Shown: piece by piece, positions 152-31,943 of the stretch
How the letters are laid out: every line of letters begins with the position of its first letter
How positions within the stretch are numbered: the first letter of the stretch is position 1
Assembly (NCBI GenBank): GCA_018971685.1
Contig: JAGXAG010000004.1
Location: forward strand, 2,416-66,415
Direction: 5' to 3'
DNA from: Patescibacteria group bacterium
Lineage (GTDB): Bacteria > Patescibacteriota > Minisyncoccia > Phycocordibacterales > PALSA-1337
Length of the DNA: 64,000 bases
Notes under the pieces: generated by a model
Told to the model about the DNA's origin: nothing
The model's database searches: none
The model's input: the letters and a program-made list of their open reading frames with translations, nothing else
Position numbers and translations under genes: made by a program

Positions 152-1546
152 TCATACCCCTTGCCGTGAAAGTATTGCTTGGGCGGTTTGTAGAGCAATG
201 CGGATATCCAGAGTGAGTGAACGGTTTTTGATATAATACATATCATAGAACAATTTATTGCGCGCTTCGCTTGCATTGACTTCGTGATGGGGATGTTTTT
301 TGTGGTATATTTGCGCCCAGCCGGATAGGCCCGGTTTTATCAGATGTCTGATGTCGTAATAAGGGATTTCTTTTTTGTAAATGGCGACAAGCGACGGAAA
401 TTCCGGCCTGGGGCCTATCAACGATTGGTCGCCTTTGAGAACGCTCCAAAGCTGGGGCAGTTCGTCTATGCGAGTGAAGCGCAATATTTTGCCCACGCGC
501 GTAACCGTCAAAGAAGTTTTACCGCCGTTAGAACCGTACGCACCGCCGTCGTTGCCCGTCATACTCCTAAATTTAGTAATCTCGATCGGCTTACCATTAC
601 GGCCTATGCGCTCTTGGCGGATGAAAATCCGACCGCGATCTTCGATCTTTATCGCCAGGTAGATGAACGGGTAAACGGCAAGCGAAACCAGCCCGACAAC
701 AGACGCTATGGCTATGTCCATAACCCTTTTGAGCGAATCGTAGACCTTATGGCCGCCGAGCGCGCCGGCGTTTTCCAACAGCCATCTTTCGCCGACCATG
801 GAAAGCGGGATGCGGTCGAATACAGCTTCATAAAGCCTGCCGGCATCGATCACTTGTTTGCCAGAGAAAATCTGGGAATACAGAAACGGCATAGCCGATT
901 CCACAGTCTTGTCGTGTAAATCAGCCACTATTATCGACGCGGCGTTTTTCGACAAGGATTCGGAAATTCTTTCCGGCAAACCGGCGGTGTTCGGGCCGAG
1001 AGCGATCCGATCGGTAAAAAGCACGCCGTAATTGCCGCCGGCATTGATTTCGTCGAAAAGATCATCGATATCGTCGCCGACACCTACAAGAATCGCCGCC
1101 TGCGGCTTGGACACGATCAAAACCGGAAACATTATCGTCCGCCAGAGGAATAGAAGCGCGGTCGATATTACGAAAAATATCGCGAGATTGGCTTTCGGCG
1201 TGATCAATACCGGCGCCAGATAGAAAAAAGTGGTGCCGACGAATATATTTGCGATTTGTGCTTTTATGAGCAGTCCTTGGATCTTTCCGCGGCCGAAAGC
1301 GGATTGTTTGTCGTAAAGCCCGGCGCTGAAGTTAACTATCACGAACAACACAAAAAGTACGGAAAATGACGGTATGTGGTCGGAAAGCAAGTTGCGGTCC
1401 GGCAATTGGCCGTAGCGAACAGTCAAGGTGAGTATGAGCGAGAACAGATAGGCGACCAGATCGCCCGCAATCAGTATTAAAGCCCTTTTTGAATTGGTCA
1501 CGCGCGTCATGGCGCGTACAATACCATGATTTGCCCGATAATTCAA
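152..1546 (-). CDS. polyprenyl-phosphate sugar-1-phosphate transferase (bacterial sugar transferase, WbaP/PssY-like)
   Basis: 464-aa ORF. N-terminal hydrophobic segments, then the conserved C-terminal block IGPRPEFPSLVAIYKKEIPYYDIRHLIKPGLSGWAQI...YDMYYIKNRSLTLDIRI, which is the signature of bacterial sugar transferases (PF02397). Confidence 0.8.
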   Translation of the reverse strand: MNYRANHGIVRAMTRVTNSKRALILIAGDLVAYLFSLILTLTVRYGQLPDRNLLSDHIPSFSVLFVLFVIVNFSAGLYDKQSAFGRGKIQGLLIKAQIANIFVGTTFFYLAPVLITPKANLAIFFVISTALLFLWRTIMFPVLIVSKPQAAILVGVGDDIDDLFDEINAGGNYGVLFTDRIALGPNTAGLPERISESLSKNAASIIVADLHDKTVESAMPFLYSQIFSGKQVIDAGRLYEAVFDRIPLSMVGERWLLENAGALGGHKVYDSLKRVMDIAIASVVGLVSLAVYPFIYLAIKIEDRGRIFIRQERIGRNGKPIEITKFRSMTGNDGGAYGSNGGKTSLTVTRVGKILRFTRIDELPQLWSVLKGDQSLIGPRPEFPSLVAIYKKEIPYYDIRHLIKPGLSGWAQIYHKKHPHHEVNASEARNKLFYDMYYIKNRSLTLDIRIALQTAQAILSRQGV

Positions 1547-5663: not shown

Positions 5664-5783
5664 AATCCTCCGTTCTGGCGGCTAGCTACTTTCGCCAAAA
5701 AGACTATCATCGCCGCAACTGCGTTTCACTGCCGTGTTCGGAATGAGAACGGGTGGTGCCACAGCGCCAAACCACCAGAACGC
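5664..5783 (-). rRNA. rrf: 5S ribosomal RNA
   Basis: The reverse complement reads cctgcgttctggtgg...ccgttctcattccgaacacggcagtgaaacgc...ccgccagaacggagg. Helix I ends pair, and the sequence aligns with the E. coli 5S internal blocks (CCGAACTCAGAAGTGAAACGCCGTAGCGCCGATGG). Confidence 0.85.
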
Positions 5784-6004: not shown

Positions 6005-9080
<3,076 letters not shown>

Positions 9081-15120: not shown

Positions 15121-15185
15121 TTACGGCTCGATTACAAACCGATAACATTTTAATGACAAAGGTCTAACGGAATGGTGACTTTTTC
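15121..15185 (-). promoter_or_regulatory. conserved promoter module copy A (TTGTCA - identical 17-nt spacer - TGTAAT), oriented toward the 12165..15113 gene
   Basis: The reverse complement reads cctTTGTCAttaaaatgttatcggttTGTAATcgagccGTAAT. Same module as copies B, C and D. Confidence 0.5.
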
Positions 15186-15193
15186 CGCCGAAT

Positions 15194-15231
15194 GCTAGGT
15201 TAGTCCTCGTTTAGACGAGGACTAACCTAGC
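15194..15231. terminator. perfect 16-bp stem hairpin gctaggttagtcctcg-ttta-cgaggactaacctagc
   Basis: Read directly from the sequence. No clean U-tract, so it may be an RNA structure or insulator rather than a simple terminator. Confidence 0.45.
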
Positions 15232-15342
15232 AATGGGCCGCCAAATTTGCCGGCCAGAAACAGGATAATGAAAATTGCGGCCAGGATCAGCAGAAAACCG
15301 AATAGAAATTTGAAGAAGACGCGGTCGAATGGATTTACCATG
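15226..15342 (-). CDS. possible 38-aa hydrophobic micro-protein (MVNPFDRVFFKFLFGFLLILAAIFIILFLAGKFGGPLL)
   Basis: Short ORF below the ORF-track cutoff. Pure TM peptide. No RBS evidence. Confidence 0.2.
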
Positions 15343-15351
15343 CTCTAAATA

Positions 15352-15410
15352 ATAACAAATTCGTCATTAAAATGTTATCAGTTTGTAATCAGATTGTAAT
15401 TTCGAATCGG
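15352..15410 (+). promoter_or_regulatory. conserved promoter module copy B upstream of toxin gene 1
   Basis: tTCGTCAttaaaatgttatcagttTGTAATcagatTGTAAT. The ATG of MPYEKD… lies about 15 nt downstream, giving a near-leaderless transcript. Confidence 0.5.
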
Positions 15411-15845
15411 TATAGTTTACTGATGCCATACGAGAAAGACCTAAACAGCTGGAACGAATTCAGTAAGAAACTCGAAACTGTCGAGCCGCCCTATTTCAGA
15501 GAACAAGAAATCTGGTGGATTGCATTCGGCACTAACATAGGCGTAGAAATCGACGGCAAACACGAACTCTTTGAGCGGCCCGGCATCATATTCAAAAAAT
15601 TGAATCGCGAATACGCCTTGGTCATTCCCATAACAAGAACCGAGAATAAAATTCCAAAAATACATGTGCCAATATCGTGCGCGGGAATAAAGAAAGGATC
15701 AGTTGCCACCATCAGTCAGATAAGATCTATGAGCTCCAAAAGATTGTTGCGTAAAGCAGGAGTATTGCCGCTGAATCAATTTGCGAAATTGCTGGATAAA
15801 TTCATGGTAATGGTTTCAACGGCGGATATGCAAGTTACGGACTGA
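15372..15845 (+). CDS. MazF/PemK/EndoA-family endoribonuclease toxin (paralog 1) with a ~27-aa N-terminal extension
   Basis: REQEIWWIAFGTNIGVEIDGKHELFERPGIIFKK…YALVIPITRTENK matches the MazF/Kid core (GDIWxVxFxPxxGxExxKxRPxLVIS…PxTS). Probable true start MPYEKD at 15423, since the ORF-track start lies inside the promoter. Confidence 0.7.
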   Translation: MLSVCNQIVISNRYSLLMPYEKDLNSWNEFSKKLETVEPPYFREQEIWWIAFGTNIGVEIDGKHELFERPGIIFKKLNREYALVIPITRTENKIPKIHVPISCAGIKKGSVATISQIRSMSSKRLLRKAGVLPLNQFAKLLDKFMVMVSTADMQVTD

Positions 15846-15854
15846 CAGAAATAA

Positions 15855-15882
15855 GGCGCCTCCGTTTTTCACGGAGGCGCCG
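15855..15882 (+). terminator. rho-independent terminator (ggcgcctccg-ttttt-cacggaggcgcc)
   Basis: GC-rich 10-bp stem with a T-run, 10 nt after the toxin 1 stop. Confidence 0.6.
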
Positions 15883-15961
15883 GAGCCCGAAGGCAACAAT
15901 CACGATCATGGTAGCAGACCTAGATTGAAAGTCAATCTCTTGAGATTATTTGAAGTACTAC

Positions 15962-15998
15962 ACTCCCCCTACTTCCCCGCGTTCAAGAGCGCCCTGGC
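15962..15998 (-). pseudogene. fossil 3' end of a peptidoglycan-binding-domain gene (…ARALLNAGK*)
   Basis: ccccctacttccccgcgttcaagagcgccctgg is about 85% identical to 16597-16633, which encodes …ATRALMNAGK* of the intact gene 16604..18367. It is part of the tandemly duplicated toxin unit. Confidence 0.4.
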
Positions 15999-16004
15999 GT
16001 TAAA

Positions 16005-16057
16005 TTTTCGTCATTAAAATGTTATCGGTTTGTAATCAGATTGTAATTTCGAATCGG
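16005..16057 (+). promoter_or_regulatory. conserved promoter module copy C upstream of toxin gene 2
   Basis: cgttaaattTTCGTCAttaaaatgttatcggttTGTAATcagatTGTAAT. Confidence 0.5.
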
Positions 16058-16459
16058 TATAGTTTACTGATGCCATACGAGAAAGACCGAAACAGCTGGA
16101 ACGAATTCAGTAAGAAACTCGAAGCCGTCGAGCCGCCCTATTTCAAGGAACGGGAAGTTTGGTGGACCTCAATTGGCGTTAATATCGGCCATGAGGAGGA
16201 TGGTAAAGGCCCCGCTCTCTCAAGGCCGGTTTTGATACTGAAAAAATTCGGAAAATATACTTTCCTTGGAATACCTTTGTCGACGACAAAAAGAGTTGGA
16301 GCGCTTTATCGCCATTTCTCTTTTCTCCCGGAAGTAGATAGTGTAGCCTTGCTCGCACATACAAAATCATTTGACTCCAGAAGACTGATCAAGAAGATCG
16401 GAACCATTGCGGATAAAGATTTTTGCGCCATGAGAAAAGCCGTCAAAGATTTACTCTGA
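16019..16459 (+). CDS. MazF/PemK/EndoA-family endoribonuclease toxin (paralog 2)
   Basis: KEREVWWTSIGVNIGHEEDGKGPALSRPVLILKK…FLGIPLSTTKR…SVALLAHTKSFDSRRLIKKIGTIADKDFCAMRKAVKDLL aligns end to end with B. subtilis EndoA/MazF. Probable true start MPYEKD at 16070. Confidence 0.7.
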   Translation: MLSVCNQIVISNRYSLLMPYEKDRNSWNEFSKKLEAVEPPYFKEREVWWTSIGVNIGHEEDGKGPALSRPVLILKKFGKYTFLGIPLSTTKRVGALYRHFSFLPEVDSVALLAHTKSFDSRRLIKKIGTIADKDFCAMRKAVKDLL

Positions 16460-16603
16460 CGGCTTTTCTCATGATTTGATTCCGCGCCCCGGTTTTCGTT
16501 TTTCGACGGAACCGAGCCCGAAGGCCAATGTAGCTTCATGATAGCGAACTCAATCGCAAAGTCAATATTGACAAGTTCTTTGAAGCATTGCGCCGCTCCC
16601 CCC

Positions 16604-18367
16604 CTACTTCCCCGCGTTCATCAGTGCCCTGGTCGCCGGCCCGACCACGCCCAAAGTATCGAGCCCATGCGCCTTCTGATACGCTTGGACGGCGGCTTTG
16701 GTGAGGGGGCCGAAGTAGCCGGTTACGGGGCCGGAATAAAATCCGGCCTTGGCGAGATACTTCTGCAATGCCGTCACATCGGGATCCGCGACGCCTTGCT
16801 TGGTCATGCCCATGTACAAATATCGCCCGAAGACATAACTGTCAATCCCGGAGACAGTCGAAACGGCAGAAACATGTGTAACTGTCGATGGAACCGGTGT
16901 GCCGACCAGATTGGCGGACGAATCGTTTCCTATCCATAGAAAAGCCTGACCACCCGTTCCCTGAGGATTAGCAAAAGTAATAACGATTGGTATGGGAGTT
17001 GTCGTATTAATCGGCACCGTGTAAGAGGCGGTATAAGGCCCACTGCCACTGCCAGAAACAGTAACCGGCAAACCGCCTATGGACAGATCGGGTACGCTTA
17101 TTGATTGGTTGAATGAAATAGATATTGACAACACACTTCCAGCTCCGGCAAATCCGCCGGTGTCGTTGGACAGAACTGACAATGAAGCGACTGCTGGTTT
17201 CGAAACATTTGATGCCGGCGAAATAGTGGCAGAAGAGCCGCTGACACTAGGCGCTACATAAACATAGAAAGTGCCACAAGGACCGCCAGATTGGCAAACA
17301 GTTATGTTGGCTCCACCGAAAGCCATGGCCGAGAGTGATACGGTCGCTCCATTGGTATTGGCAGAAACCGAATCTGGAGCTGAATTCTGAGACACATAAT
17401 AAACCTGCGGAGCTCCGTTACCGCCATAAATAGAGACCATTTGCGTCTGACCTATACTCATGTTCACCTGGCTTTGGCTGAATGAAAGGGAGGGAGTGAT
17501 TGTTGTACTTGTATTGACGGCAGAAGATGCGACCGTGACAGACAGATTGGCACAGGTCGTACTTCCACCGGAATATGAACATACGCTTAGAGAATCAGTG
17601 CCAGTGGATACGCCGACAACAGTCAGGGTGGAACCGGATATACTAGCGGTGGCTACGCCTGAATTTGAATTTGACGACAAATAATACGAACCTGAGCCGG
17701 TGATAAAGATCTGTTGCGACTGGCCGGCAGAAATCGAGACTGCGCTTTGGCTTAAAGATACGCTGGCTGTCGCCGCGGCTGACGCACTTACTGATACCTG
17801 CACATTGCCGCACCCTATATTGGAGGCACATACAGTGATGTTGGTAGTACCGAAAGCCAGACCTGTTATAGTTATCTGATTACCGGAAATTACCGCTCCG
17901 GCTATTGCCGGATTGACATTATTACCCAGAGACAATGGAGCGGATACGGAAGCCGAGACTACTGCCGTCTGTCCCACCAACAAGGATATCATGCTTTGAC
18001 TCAATGACAGTCCGCCAGAGGCGGTATAATTTGGCCACACTTGAGTCATTGACTGGATATTGTCAACCGATGCGTACACAGGCACTCCGGCGGCAATACC
18101 GTACTGGGTTGAGTTTACAGATGTAGTCAAATAGCCACTAGAATTGGTCGTACCTATGTTGACTGATGTGTATCCACCGGATGACGGGTAATACAACAAG
18201 ACGGATGCGTTCGGATCTGCTTGTAATATAGTCACTGTGACTGCACTACTTCCGGAACTGTTGCTGAGTGATATGGACGGGATATTTGCCGCCAATGTCG
18301 GCGACGCCGCTACCAAACACAATACAACAAATAAGATACTGCTGATTATTGTATTTCTTGTATTCAT
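16604..18367 (-). CDS. secreted S/T-rich surface protein with C-terminal peptidoglycan-binding domain (PG_binding_1-like)
   Basis: 587 aa. Signal peptide (ILFVVLCLVAASPTLA), long Ser/Thr/Gly-rich repetitive region, C-terminus DPDVTALQKYLAKAGFYSGPVTGYFGPLTKAAVQAYQKAHGLDTLGVVGPATRAL. Confidence 0.6.
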   Translation of the reverse strand: MNTRNTIISSILFVVLCLVAASPTLAANIPSISLSNSSGSSAVTVTILQADPNASVLLYYPSSGGYTSVNIGTTNSSGYLTTSVNSTQYGIAAGVPVYASVDNIQSMTQVWPNYTASGGLSLSQSMISLLVGQTAVVSASVSAPLSLGNNVNPAIAGAVISGNQITITGLAFGTTNITVCASNIGCGNVQVSVSASAAATASVSLSQSAVSISAGQSQQIFITGSGSYYLSSNSNSGVATASISGSTLTVVGVSTGTDSLSVCSYSGGSTTCANLSVTVASSAVNTSTTITPSLSFSQSQVNMSIGQTQMVSIYGGNGAPQVYYVSQNSAPDSVSANTNGATVSLSAMAFGGANITVCQSGGPCGTFYVYVAPSVSGSSATISPASNVSKPAVASLSVLSNDTGGFAGAGSVLSISISFNQSISVPDLSIGGLPVTVSGSGSGPYTASYTVPINTTTPIPIVITFANPQGTGGQAFLWIGNDSSANLVGTPVPSTVTHVSAVSTVSGIDSYVFGRYLYMGMTKQGVADPDVTALQKYLAKAGFYSGPVTGYFGPLTKAAVQAYQKAHGLDTLGVVGPATRALMNAGK

Positions 18368-28084: not shown

Positions 28085-28150
28085 CGCTGATTACAGTCTG
28101 ATTACAAACCGATAACATTCTGATGACAAAAGTTTAACGGAATGATGACT
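28085..28150 (-). promoter_or_regulatory. conserved promoter module copy D, about 160 nt upstream of the rpsF-ssb-rpsR operon
   Basis: The reverse complement reads ccgttaaactTTTGTCAtcagaatgttatcggttTGTAATcagacTGTAATc. Same -35/17-nt spacer/-10 as copies A-C. Confidence 0.45.
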
Positions 28151-29160: not shown

Positions 29161-30785
29161 TTTCTGACGAACAACGGCCGCTCGGGCATTTTGTTTTCTT
29201 TGATCAAGTCAAGAATCGTTTCGGCGGTCTGCGGCAAAATCGGCAAGAGCAATCCGGCGATGATTTTCAAATATGCGAGCAATTCGGCGATATCGCGCTT
29301 GGCGGCGGATGCGTCAGTCTTGATTTTCTTGAATGGTTCCCGTTCTTGGACGATCGCATCGGCTTTGGAGATGAGAGTCCAAACGGCATTCGACGCTTGT
29401 TGGATATTGTAACCGCCGAAACCTTTTTCATACTCTTTCATGGCCATAATTATTTCCGAGGACTTTTCGATAGACTGCGCCGTTTTTTCATCCAGTTTGA
29501 CATCATTCGCGACTGCCATTTTCATCACGCGGCTTACCAGGTTTCCCAGGCCGTTCGCCAAATGTGCGTTGTAAGCTTCCTTGAATTTTTCCGGCGTAAA
29601 CGGACTGTCCTCGAAAGGATGCAATTCCCGCAAAACGAAATACCGCAAAGCATCAGTGCCGTATTCTTTGACTATTTCGAACGGGTCGACCGTGTTGCCG
29701 AGCGATTTTGACATTTTGACACCGCCATCGCCGGTGATAAAGCCGTCGACGACGATGGTCCTTGAATTGGGCAACCCGGCGGCCATGAGCATGGCTTGCC
29801 ACATCGCCGCTTGCTGACGAAGATTATCTTTGCCGCAGTACTGGACGACGCCGCCGGTTTCTATCCACCAATGTTGGAATTTCTGATCGATTAACTCGCC
29901 TTTCCGTGAGACGGCTGACGACAATTCACTTGGTTGGTCGCCGGATAGCTCGTCAGGCCAGCCGACGGCCGAAATATAATTGACCAGCGCGTCGAACCAG
30001 ACATACATGACCTGGGTATCGTCGTCCGGCACCGGAATGCCCCACGGCATCTTGCTCGCCAGTCGGGAAATGCTGAAATCCTCGAGGCCTTTCCTCACGA
30101 ACGATTTGATCTCGTTCAACCTGGAGTCCGGAATGACGAAGTCCGGCTTGGTTTCATACAATTCCAACAACTGTTTTTGGAACGCGCTCGCTTTGAAAAA
30201 ATAATTCTCCTCCTCGATGGTTTCCAATTCCTGCAAGGGATGCAGAGGACATTTGCCGTCGACCAGTTCCGATTCGGTCTTTTCGAGCTCACAGCCGACG
30301 CAATATTTGACCTTATAATTTTTCTTGTATATGTAGCCGTTCTGTTCGACCGCTTTCCAGAATGCCTGCGCCGCGCGGACATGATGAGGATCGGTGGTGC
30401 GGATAAAATTGGTATCCGGCATGAGTCCGAGCGCGGGTATCAAGGCCTTGAATTTGGCGGCGTATTCGTCGACATATTCTTGCGGAGAAACACCTCGCGA
30501 CTGGGCGTTCTGGTAAATTTTCATGCCATGCTCGTCGGTGCCGGTGTTGGAGAAGACCCCGAAGCCATCAAGCTTTTTCGCTCGCGCCACGGTGTCGGCG
30601 CGGATGGCTTCCATGGCAAAGCCGATATGGGGATCAGAATTGACATAAGGCAAGGTAGTCGTTATGTAAAAAGGTTTTTGCCATTCTGGCCCCGTCTGCC
30701 ACGCTTTTTCCGTTTTCCTCGTTTTTTTCGCCATGCCTGAAGTGTACCGCGAAAAATTCAAAACGCAAAATCGCCGCGTCCGCAA
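29157..30785 (-). CDS. metG: methionine--tRNA ligase
   Basis: Class I HIGH region (PYVNSDPHIGFAMEAIRADTVARAKKL) and KMSKSLGN. Likely start at MAKKTRK (about 30734). Confidence 0.9.
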   Translation of the reverse strand: MRTRRFCVLNFSRYTSGMAKKTRKTEKAWQTGPEWQKPFYITTTLPYVNSDPHIGFAMEAIRADTVARAKKLDGFGVFSNTGTDEHGMKIYQNAQSRGVSPQEYVDEYAAKFKALIPALGLMPDTNFIRTTDPHHVRAAQAFWKAVEQNGYIYKKNYKVKYCVGCELEKTESELVDGKCPLHPLQELETIEEENYFFKASAFQKQLLELYETKPDFVIPDSRLNEIKSFVRKGLEDFSISRLASKMPWGIPVPDDDTQVMYVWFDALVNYISAVGWPDELSGDQPSELSSAVSRKGELIDQKFQHWWIETGGVVQYCGKDNLRQQAAMWQAMLMAAGLPNSRTIVVDGFITGDGGVKMSKSLGNTVDPFEIVKEYGTDALRYFVLRELHPFEDSPFTPEKFKEAYNAHLANGLGNLVSRVMKMAVANDVKLDEKTAQSIEKSSEIIMAMKEYEKGFGGYNIQQASNAVWTLISKADAIVQEREPFKKIKTDASAAKRDIAELLAYLKIIAGLLLPILPQTAETILDLIKENKMPERPLFVRK

Positions 30786-30827
30786 GAATTTTAGGCCAAT
30801 ATCTGCCGCATCTGGCCGAGGTTTTAT

Positions 30828-31943
30828 TTACATCCCCACCTTCACAACATCGTGCTCCGCGTGCTTGCGCGCCTCTATATCGTGAACATATTCCATGAGA
30901 GCCGCGGAGAGAGGAACCGCAATGATCGCGCCTAGCACGCCGGCAAGCTTCGCACCGATAATAAGCGCCAAAATGACAACAACCGGATTGATGCCGACGA
31001 TCTTCTTCACCACCAACGGATAGAACAATTGGCTTTCGAATTGGTAGACGATCAAGTACAAGCCGATGAGAAGCAAGCCTGTGCCCAAGCCCCTGTCCGC
31101 GAAGGCGATCATGATCGCCGGAATCGACGAGATGATCGGCCCGAATACCGGAATGATCTCGAAAACCGCCGCCAGAACCGACAACGCCAAAGCGTACGGT
31201 ATGCCTACCACCATCAAAACCAAATACACCAACACCCCCACCACTAAGCCCAGGAGCAACTGCCCTTGCAGCCACAAGGCTATCTTTCTCTGGGAGCGTT
31301 TCCACAGATTGATGACATATTCATGGCGCTTGACCGGAGTCACGATGCGCAAGAAATCGTCCACGCCGTCTTCCTGCACCGCCAGATAAAAAGACAAAAC
31401 TACGATGAGAAGCAGGCTCAAAAATCCGCCAAAGATGATGCTCGCCGTCTGGAATGCGCTGTCGCTCGTACCCACCAATATGCCTTGCAGGCCGTTCAGG
31501 AATTCCGCCAACGAAATAGTATGCGTCGACAACGAAGCTGTCGAACCGATATTCACGCCGATACTTTGTATCGGGCTCCACAAATCAGAGAGAGATATTG
31601 TTTTCGGAATACTGCCGATGAAACCAGCAGCCTCGTTCACCACTGCCGGCATAAAGAATACCAAAATAGCTGAAAGTGCCGCTGCAGTAACTATGTATAT
31701 AAGCACTACCGACAAAACCCTGTGCACGCCCAGGCGCTTGAGCCGCCGAACCAACGGCTCGATCGCAGACGCTATGACCACCGCAGCCAGCACGACCAAC
31801 AAAACATCCGACAAGTAATACAATGCCAATATTAAAACCGCCACGACAAAAAATCGCACGATGGTTCCGGTACTGATCGACAGCCGATTCTCTCCGAGCA
31901 AATCCGTCATGCCTTTATTGTACCACTTTTTCCGAGAATGCAA
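30828..31943 (-). CDS. AI-2E family (UPF0118/PerM-like) transporter
   Basis: 371 aa, about 8 TM helices with AI-2E-like topology. From memory, the block LILALIIGAKLAGVLGAIIAVPL is typical. Confidence 0.7.
   Translation of the reverse strand: MHSRKKWYNKGMTDLLGENRLSISTGTIVRFFVVAVLILALYYLSDVLLVVLAAVVIASAIEPLVRRLKRLGVHRVLSVVLIYIVTAAALSAILVFFMPAVVNEAAGFIGSIPKTISLSDLWSPIQSIGVNIGSTASLSTHTISLAEFLNGLQGILVGTSDSAFQTASIIFGGFLSLLLIVVLSFYLAVQEDGVDDFLRIVTPVKRHEYVINLWKRSQRKIALWLQGQLLLGLVVGVLVYLVLMVVGIPYALALSVLAAVFEIIPVFGPIISSIPAIMIAFADRGLGTGLLLIGLYLIVYQFESQLFYPLVVKKIVGINPVVVILALIIGAKLAGVLGAIIAVPLSAALMEYVHDIEARKHAEHDVVKVGM

Follow-up and report, generated by a model that had tools for sequence, protein, structure and literature searches.

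Convergent small RNAs as candidate partners of N-extended MazF/PemK-like toxins in Patescibacteria

Two tandem toxin genes, here called T1 and T2, lie within a 64,000-nucleotide (nt) stretch of DNA from a Patescibacteria group bacterium (GenBank assembly GCA_018971685.1, contig JAGXAG010000004.1, positions 2,416 to 66,415 of the forward strand), which was analyzed as a whole and is referred to below as the window. Among the described systems close to them are the type II toxin-antitoxin (TA) systems MazEF, PemIK and Kid-Kis, with which they have in common the fold, the Pfam family and the Arg and Thr/Ser residues at the catalytic positions. Yet, in contrast to MazEF and PemIK, no MazE/PemI gene precedes the toxin gene in the window or at 132 related loci, an extra helix is present at the N-terminus, and the predicted partner is an RNA encoded on the opposite strand; thus, it is misleading that NCBI labels such proteins "type II toxin-antitoxin system PemK/MazF family toxin." Our analysis suggests that this N-extended branch of MazF/PemK toxins, filed in databases as "type II," is controlled by convergent small RNAs and not by MazE-like proteins, with one probable experimental precedent in Campylobacter.

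Convergent toxin and antitoxin genes are known from par (Fst/RNA II) of pAD1, txpA/RatA and bsrG/SR4, where the toxin mRNA and the antitoxin RNA overlap at their 3' ends. The toxins of these three systems are small hydrophobic peptides, and in par both transcripts share a bidirectional terminator. T2 and its predicted RNA resemble par in the 3' overlap and in the shared bidirectional terminator, but the toxin is an RNase of around 130 amino acids (aa), and complementarity of the kind provided by the par 5' direct repeats was not found for the toxin/RNA pairs of the window. In the type III systems ToxIN, CptIN and TenpIN, as proposed here, an endoribonuclease toxin is neutralized by a small structured RNA and no protein antitoxin is present; ToxN, moreover, has a Kid/MazF-like fold. 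Type III antitoxins, however, are tandem repeats that lie upstream of the toxin gene on the same strand and are processed by the toxin, whereas each toxin of the window has a single convergent RNA with its own promoter. A repeat search of the window found no tandem antitoxin-RNA repeats upstream of T1 or T2, the upstream sequence being a shared promoter motif. The pemK RNA motif, reportedly introduced by Weinberg and colleagues in 2017, is said to be a motif of the 5' untranslated region (UTR) of Firmicutes pemK genes; the paper's main text makes no mention of it. Both this motif and the window RNAs are structured RNAs next to pemK-family genes, but the latter are located 3' of the gene, on the opposite strand, and have no match in Rfam 15. 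Two papers (PMC10470494; PMC7826846), with reference to Shen et al. (2016, Mol Microbiol 101:909), name the antisense small RNA (sRNA) CjrA as the experimentally validated antitoxin of a type I system that resides on the Campylobacter jejuni plasmid pVir.

Toxin genes and predicted convergent RNAs of the window

We found that the window holds two toxin genes on the same strand, each followed by a predicted RNA gene in the opposite orientation:

15423..15845, plus strand: T1, N-extended PemK/MazF toxin gene, 140 aa (PF02452, public gene call, AlphaFold/Foldseek)
15846..15901, minus strand: predicted small RNA 1, ~55 nt, convergent to T1 (class A match, terminator, folding)
15908..15935, minus strand: sigma-70-like promoter of RNA 1, TTGACT-16-TACCAT, 9/12 (promoter scan)
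16070..16459, plus strand: T2, N-extended PemK/MazF toxin gene, 129 aa (PF02452, public gene call)
16430..16531, minus strand: predicted small RNA 2, ~100 nt, class B, three hairpins, convergent to T2 (R2 match)
16538..16565, minus strand: sigma-70-like promoter of RNA 2, TTGACT-16-TATCAT, 10/12 (promoter scan)

The limits of T1 and T2 follow public gene calls for identical DNA (GCA_028870795.1, contig JAGWOV010000010.1), which, together with the family alignments, place the start codon of both toxins at MPYEKD. An earlier note on this DNA, made from the letters alone, had rightly recognized both toxin open reading frames (ORFs) but had begun them at 15372 and 16019, that is, at upstream in-frame ATG codons lying within the promoter motif. 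Its assignment of both products to the MazF/PemK fold is supported by the PF02452 (PemK_toxin) profile, which matches T1 (44 bits, E 2.9e-11, residues 28-130) and T2 (37.5 bits, E 3.1e-9, residues 27-128) above its gathering cut-off of 23.1 and over nearly its full length; an NCBIfam search of the two proteins gave MazF/ChpB matches below threshold only. The AlphaFold model of T1, run with the family alignment, retains a standard MazF barrel (mean predicted local distance difference test score, pLDDT, 78.4). When the toxin model was compared with the PDB by Foldseek, all of the 50 best matches were MazF, EndoA or MoxT structures (E down to 6e-7, TM-score to target 0.7-0.8), those for T1 being led by MazF-mt1, S. 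aureus MazF and YdcE. Arg52-Pro53 is invariant, and Pro69-x-Thr71 of T1 has its counterpart in P-L-S of T2. These R-P and P-x-T/S positions align to R-P and A-I-T of solved MazFs, in which the catalytic residues are an Arg (R29 in E. coli, R25 in B. subtilis) and a Thr/Ser (T52 and T48, respectively). We therefore regard T1 and T2 as N-extended MazF/PemK-fold toxins with predicted endoribonuclease activity.

For the RNAs, two covariance models were used: R1, which describes a two-hairpin class A, and R2, which describes a three-hairpin class B and was built without window sequence. RNA 2 is matched by R2 at 16428-16534 (minus strand) with 58.1 bits (E 4e-15), the sole strong match in the whole window. 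Its predicted transcript overlaps the final ~30 nt of the T2 coding sequence in antisense and includes a terminator hairpin that is bidirectional and shared with T2; the C-terminus of T2 (...RKAVKDLL) is encoded by this hairpin, and the same C-terminus is found in other toxins paired with class B RNAs (loci L088, L058 and L090). The minimum free energy of RNA 2 is -47.4 kcal/mol, vs. -39.3 kcal/mol for the plus strand (z-score -6.4). RNA 1 is matched over its full length by R1 at 15845-15907 (minus strand; 14.5 bits, E 0.002, when 1 kb was searched without filters) and is composed of a GCCUUCGGGC hairpin, which represents a compensatory variant, a UCCG linker, an 11-bp GC hairpin at 15855-15881 and a U-tract abutting the T1 stop codon. 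A minus-strand terminator is predicted at 15881-15855, the U-tract after the T1 hairpin being present on the minus strand only; the minimum free energy is -29.6 kcal/mol vs. -27.9 kcal/mol for the plus strand (z-score -5.3), and the promoter sits at the same relative position as at homologous loci. At the gathering threshold, Rfam 15 matches only the 23S and 5S rRNA in the window, and, at E <= 1, only tRNAs and chance matches at eight related loci.

No MazE/PemI-like ORF adjoins T1 or T2 among the window ORFs, and no ORF of at least 30 aa within 700 nt on either side of the toxin gene is common to more than 4 of the 132 related loci. The absence of a protein antitoxin next to either toxin, as claimed in the earlier note, thus stands, both at this locus and across its relatives. 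Three homologs located in long contigs are embedded among unrelated housekeeping genes (glutaredoxin/DivIC, bPH_2/S20 and DNA polymerase III delta'/NUDIX), and these loci offer neither the space nor an ORF for a protein antitoxin; the upstream gaps at L005 and L008 amount to 54-67 bp. The same note had considered a toxin without a partner to be remarkable. This view did not hold, since solo toxins are common (PMC2701414) and T1 and T2 each have a predicted RNA partner. A tiny antitoxin peptide translated from the RNA region (M-G/A-F-G-L-R...) was also considered and is excluded, because its AUG is not conserved (AUUAGUGG, AUUGACGG and AAAUGG variants) and its length and frame vary; the region corresponds instead to a covarying hairpin and a terminator.

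Predicted RNA genes and toxins at homologous loci

Searches among GTDB species representatives (185,579 species) gave at least 489 stretches confirmed by tblastn, of which 80 loci were fetched, nearly all from Patescibacteria lineages. In metagenomes, at least 558 stretches were confirmed in the same way and again 80 loci were fetched. We observed that loci with unrelated neighbors (L002, L005 and L008) share the order toxin stop codon, hairpin, CUCGGAGGCCGAAGCC and, on the reverse strand, TTGACA-16-TATAAT. Read on the strand opposite to the toxin, the conserved 3' DNA comprises TTGAC(A/T)-16-TA(T/A)AAT, a spacer of ~7 nt, AUUAUGG-GCUUCGGC-CUCCGAGA, a variable GC-rich hairpin, and UUUCGUUGUUUA ending at the toxin stop codon. 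The RNA gene is therefore generally laid out as follows: behind a sigma-70-like promoter comes a 5' C(UUCG)G hairpin, then one or two hairpins that covary and, at or over the toxin stop codon, the terminator; further variants possess UGGCACUAGCCA-type 5' hairpins. R1 matches 65 of 82 loci with 24-72 bits, and every primary match is antisense to the toxin gene and directly past its stop codon. At most of the 80 metagenome loci, R2 and R1 match RNAs at the equivalent position. Overall, the models locate an RNA of this strand and placement at the majority of ~130 homologous loci, whose neighbors are unrelated. In class B, the coding sequence for the toxin C-terminus runs through the last hairpin.

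Both RNA classes are supported by covariation. In class A, 91% of the alignment cells are paired vs. 74% after shuffling, with 105 two-sided changes vs. 25; in class B, the paired fraction is 92% vs. 69%, all 21 of 21 pairs show two-sided changes and all three helices covary. None of 500 shuffles reached the observed values in either class, and sliding of the pairing register abolishes the signal in both. The paired fractions are inflated, as the R1 and R2 alignments were fitted to the models; an independent MAFFT/RNAalifold analysis, in which 7 of 8 pairs were compensatory, agrees with the model-based covariation. A sigma-70 consensus of at least 10/12 occurs at a fixed upstream distance in 70% of 119 RNA loci, compared to 0.9% of control segments. 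As evidence for the transcribed strand, G-U pairs outnumber A-C pairs by 73:24 in class B and by 20:12 in class A. The 5' half of class A RNAs (GGCUUCGGCCUCCGAG) is near-invariant across toxins that are only ~40% identical; this near-invariance covers the 5' hairpin and a 7-nt single-stranded linker, CUCCGAG, while the hairpin at the toxin end varies freely. The RNA classes follow the toxin subclades. We found no description of the Patescibacteria-wide distribution of this toxin-RNA module in the literature searched or in Rfam.

Additional class A RNAs were detected at several loci: one in L021 (1397-1456, minus strand), located upstream of the toxin and apparently orphan, a tandem pair in L028 (1887-1950 and 1964-2016, minus strand), and others in L100 (983-1046), L103 (2153-2211), L148 (1098-1162) and L154 (230-301), which may belong to neighboring modules missed by the toxin pattern. 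tRNA genes adjoin the modules in L002 (3880-3951 and 5334-5406), L008 (4558-4628), L013 (just past the toxin stop codon) and L018 (564-646), which would fit the insertion of a mobile module at tRNA loci.

The N-terminal extension is likewise a property of the subfamily and is not specific to this locus. A protein search with T1 retrieved around 30 relatives, mostly of ~132 aa and covering 91% of T1, and in their alignment the extension is kept as M-x-K-D-F-D-x-W-N-x-K-K-K, with K5 and W10 invariant and D6, N11 and K14/K15 nearly so. It is also present in plasmid and phage homologs of Campylobacterota and is spanned by PHROG family 9567 ("MazF-like growth inhibitor"). AlphaFold predicts a single amphipathic helix (residues 7-18, pLDDT 65-72) ahead of the barrel. 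The net charge of the extension averages +1.2 (standard deviation 1.9) over 77 family members; it is -2 in T1 and 0 in T2.

A tblastn search with a family member against annotated plasmids and phages led to C. jejuni pVir, CJIE4 prophages, and Helicobacter and Nitratiruptor plasmids, in all of which the homolog is annotated as a lone "type II ... PemK/MazF family toxin." CJJ81176_pVir0047 (strain 81-176 pVir, 30634-31038) is 35% identical (E 3e-10) to the family member P0002 (132 aa), which is itself 47% identical to T1, and the pVir0047 N-terminus (...FDEWNEVKK) contains the subfamily motif F-D-x-W-N-x-x-K-K. Between pVir0047 and pVir0048, the minus strand of pVir encodes the 77-nt sRNA CJpv3 (31119 to 31043), which was detected on a Northern blot and has a very strong start site at 31119 in differential RNA sequencing (Dugar et al., 2013; PMC3656092, Tables S5 and S12). 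CJpv3 is convergent to pVir0047 and its 3' end lies 5 nt past the toxin stop codon, which is the architecture seen in the window. The CjrA/CjpT–CJpv3 system of pVir, if these names denote one system, resembles the window modules in the N-extended toxin subfamily, in the lack of a protein antitoxin and in the short convergent sRNA at the toxin stop codon. The likeness to Patescibacteria is confined to the toxin subfamily and the layout, as the RNAs have no detectable sequence or structure homology; furthermore, a leader of 26 nt precedes the toxin coding sequence in the pVir mRNA, while the genes of Patescibacteria seem to be leaderless. In the Nitratiruptor and H. suis plasmid homologs, an extended -10 promoter is followed by a two- to three-hairpin RNA abutting the toxin stop codon. 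The Nitratiruptor plasmid (NZ_AP023062.1, L171) carries an annotated 62-aa hypothetical protein gene (1155-1343, plus strand) on the toxin strand, ~75 nt past the toxin stop codon; the call, whose start coincides with the promoter predicted for the convergent RNA, may be spurious.

Possible modes of toxin control

On balance, the small convergent RNA is probably the antitoxin and would act in a type I-like manner through the 3' end of the toxin mRNA. The analysis establishes the promoter, covarying structure and terminator of the RNA gene, its strict linkage to the toxin family, the lack of a conserved protein partner and, beside the pVir homolog, an equivalent sRNA detected by experiment; neutralization of the toxin by the RNA, and its mode, we infer. 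The system would form a compact two-gene module of ~550-650 bp, consisting of an N-extended toxin gene and a convergent RNA of ~55-100 nt. The RNA would be transcribed from the sigma-70-like promoter just past the toxin 3' end, which is near-consensus in most loci and scores 9-10/12 in the window, and would terminate at the stop codon (T1) or in the last codons (T2) of the toxin gene. It could then pair with the toxin mRNA at its 3' end or in its 3' UTR, in the case of T2 through the shared terminator hairpin and ~30 nt of coding sequence. For T1, the whole RNA would be complementary if the toxin transcript reads through, and this it probably does, since the T1 hairpin lacks a U-tract on the plus strand. 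Such pairing would lower the stability of the toxin mRNA or keep it silent; the RNA is presumably short-lived, and once it is lost, the toxin would be made. Pairing in trans with the 5' end or body of the toxin mRNA was considered as well and rejected, as the energies of cognate (-19.1 kcal/mol), non-cognate (-19.9 kcal/mol) and shuffled (-19.8 kcal/mol) combinations were indistinguishable. Given that no specific complementarity to the 5' region or body was found, an antisense mechanism could use the 3' overlap only.

Several observations weigh against this explanation. The complementarity of the RNA to the 5' end or body of its own toxin mRNA does not exceed expectation (p = 0.49 for T1, 0.50 for T2 and 0.13 for pVir), and the near-invariant 5' half of class A RNAs is not needed for antisense action in cis and fits better with recognition by a protein. 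RNA 1 is a weak and divergent match to its model with a promoter of 9/12, and both window RNAs are predictions for this organism. As for the Campylobacter precedent, the identity of CjrA/CjpT with CJpv3/pVir0047 is assumed as probable, in part from the geometry; at the CJpv3 position, R2 yields 6.1 bits (E 1.2), i.e., no detectable homology to the Patescibacteria RNAs when compared with this model.

Some of these points would be explained if the RNA itself bound the MazF-fold protein, either as a pseudo-substrate or as an inhibitor, in a type III-like mode to which the N-terminal helix may add RNA binding. We hold this to be a possible though rather unlikely solution. It would agree with the near-invariance of the class A 5' hairpin and CUCCGAG linker at ~40% toxin identity, with the distribution of RNA classes along toxin subclades, with RNAs that do not overlap the coding sequence at T1 and at the pVir homolog, with the lack of a 5' antisense target, and with the unique conserved N-terminal helix and its invariant Trp and Lys. 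Yet, tandem RNA repeats upstream on the toxin strand are lacking, PADLOC matched no defense-system model to T1 or T2 (the presence of ToxN, AbiQ, CptN and TenpN models in its library was not checked), the only cited precedent, that of pVir, is described as type I antisense, and the co-variation of RNA and toxin can be explained by physical linkage alone. It seems doubtful that these RNAs are direct sequence-specific protein inhibitors, recognized in part by the N-terminal helix, which would represent a new, non-repeat type III-like class widespread in Patescibacteria. A more speculative extension of this idea is that the invariant, single-stranded CCUCC-containing linker of class A mimics the toxin target, e.g., the anti-Shine-Dalgarno sequence of 16S rRNA, the toxin mRNA being leaderless.

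The toxins could also be sequence-specific RNases with a housekeeping or domesticated role; a partner, should one exist, would then be encoded at another site, as one of three options in the earlier note had it, and the RNA could be their substrate or an independent regulator. The position of modules amid housekeeping genes and the existence of solo MazF homologs with other roles, e.g., M. xanthus MazF (PMC2701414), speak for such a role, but we consider it improbable: the unrelated contexts from locus to locus, the tRNA genes beside the module in four loci, the tandem multi-copy arrays and the plasmid and prophage homologs are hallmarks of mobile TA modules and not of core genes. Least probable, and in our view barely tenable, is that the extension is a built-in cis-inhibitor, so that the toxins are self-controlled and the downstream RNA has no part in neutralization, being, e.g., a terminator or stability element. 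The extension is indeed conserved and particular to this antitoxin-less subfamily, and that of T1 is slightly acidic. However, its family-wide positive mean charge is unlike the acidic MazE tail, a permanently fused inhibitor would provide no switch, and a promoter-driven, covarying RNA gene beside the toxin at most examined loci would be left unexplained. The fused MazE-tail-like antitoxin put forward in the note is thus not supported, in view of the subfamily-wide conservation, the mean charge and the single amphipathic helix.

If the target of the RNA is the mRNA, the system is a type I relative, as preferred here; if it is the protein, the system is a new type III-like class. Both RNA classes are absent from Rfam, short and strongly covarying, with clear promoters and terminators, and can thus be readily tested. 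If RNA control is confirmed, the toxin genes of a large branch will have to be reannotated, RNA-antitoxin biology will extend to the best-studied RNase toxin fold, and Patescibacteria, which are without genetic tools, will gain a compact, transplantable regulatory module.

Tandem arrangement, promoter motif and neighborhood

The near-identical 5' ends of the two toxin genes reported in the earlier note were confirmed as a direct repeat of 183 nt (15360-15542 and 16007-16189, 90% identical), which includes 63 nt of upstream sequence and 40 codons; past it, blocks of 30 nt are only 30-60% identical at the DNA level. Also confirmed was the duplicated piece of the neighboring gene (RAL(L/M)NAGK*), a 33-nt repeat with 91% identity (15965-15997 and 16600-16632), whose second copy is the true 3' end (...RALMNAGK*) of the PG_binding_1 gene at 16604-18367 on the minus strand. 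The simple recent duplication of ~650 bp deduced from these repeats does not, however, account for the locus by itself, as the flanks alone are near-identical, whereas the cores share 30% identity and belong to different subclades and RNA classes. At the protein level, the N-terminal parts of T1 and T2 are 79% identical, the highest value among 1,967 pairs of comparable core identity (mean 46%, standard deviation 6), and the core of T1 resembles toxins of other species (48% identity to L011) more than it resembles T2 (30%). T1 and T2 are thus old paralogs, and their near-identical flanks indicate duplication of the locus followed by core replacement or gene conversion, or homogenization of the flanks. 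Tandem arrays of two to three toxin-RNA modules were also observed in L078 (16-1649), L146 (1195-2192) and L049 (1492-3330). In L078, divergent toxins are 100% identical over 90 nt upstream and 30 nt of coding sequence (first 10 codons) and then ~40% identical, which suggests recurrent 5' gene conversion or cassette exchange; L146 presents a weaker version of this mosaic.

The remaining features of the region are as follows:

15965..15997, minus strand: duplicated fragment of the PG_binding_1 gene 3' end, ...RALLNAGK*, right edge of unit 1 (repeat)
15363..15390, plus strand: 28-nt motif copy before T1; TATAGT box at 15411-15416, 20 nt on and 6 nt before the ATG
16010..16037, plus strand: 28-nt motif copy before T2; TATAGT box at 16058-16063
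15130..15157, minus strand: 28-nt motif copy, inverted, before a gene for a 968-aa LCAT-domain (LCAT-like) protein
28100..28127, minus strand: 28-nt motif copy before rpsF

The 28-nt motif GTCATTAAAATGTTATCRGTTTGTAATC occurs in four copies in the window vs. none expected, and a TAnnnT box is positioned exactly 20 nt after each copy. It contains a short internal repeat, TGTAAT...TGTAAT, and canonical -35/-10 spacing could not be fitted to it. As it is also found upstream of rpsF and of the LCAT-like gene, it is a general promoter or operator element, and it may represent an operator common to these genes or an unusual kind of promoter in this organism. Across the family, -10 boxes with one mismatch or none show a sharp peak at 6-7 nt upstream of the ATG (27 of 113 genes, compared to roughly one or two at each other distance), and a Shine-Dalgarno-like core was found in 4 of 113 toxin genes only. 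The toxin mRNAs may thus be leaderless, although in the window an alternative -10 box (TGTAAT) would yield a leader of ~25 nt; if the TATAGT box is used, little or no room is left for a regulatory leader RNA. The suggestion of a non-protein antitoxin made in the note is the most likely reading, but its proposed origin in the conserved leader is not supported, since that leader is a promoter motif and the predicted RNA lies opposite to the 3' end of the toxin gene, on the other strand. The idea that the CCUCC linker blocks a toxin Shine-Dalgarno sequence was ruled out, given the rarity of such cores and the many -10 boxes 6-7 nt from the ATG.

Elsewhere in the window, a 5S (5673-5779) and a 23S rRNA gene (6015-9071) lie on the minus strand; Rfam at the gathering threshold reported no 16S rRNA gene in the window. 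Upstream of T1, the hydrophobic ORF on the opposite strand mentioned in the earlier note does exist, with 39 aa and not 38. This uncalled, very hydrophobic ORF (15222-15341, minus strand; MVNPFDRVFFKFLFGFLLILAAIFIILFLAGKFGGPLLG) is positioned between two divergent promoter motifs and is followed by a hairpin with 31-nt arms (15180-15245); its size and composition resemble those of type I toxin peptides or of a small membrane protein.

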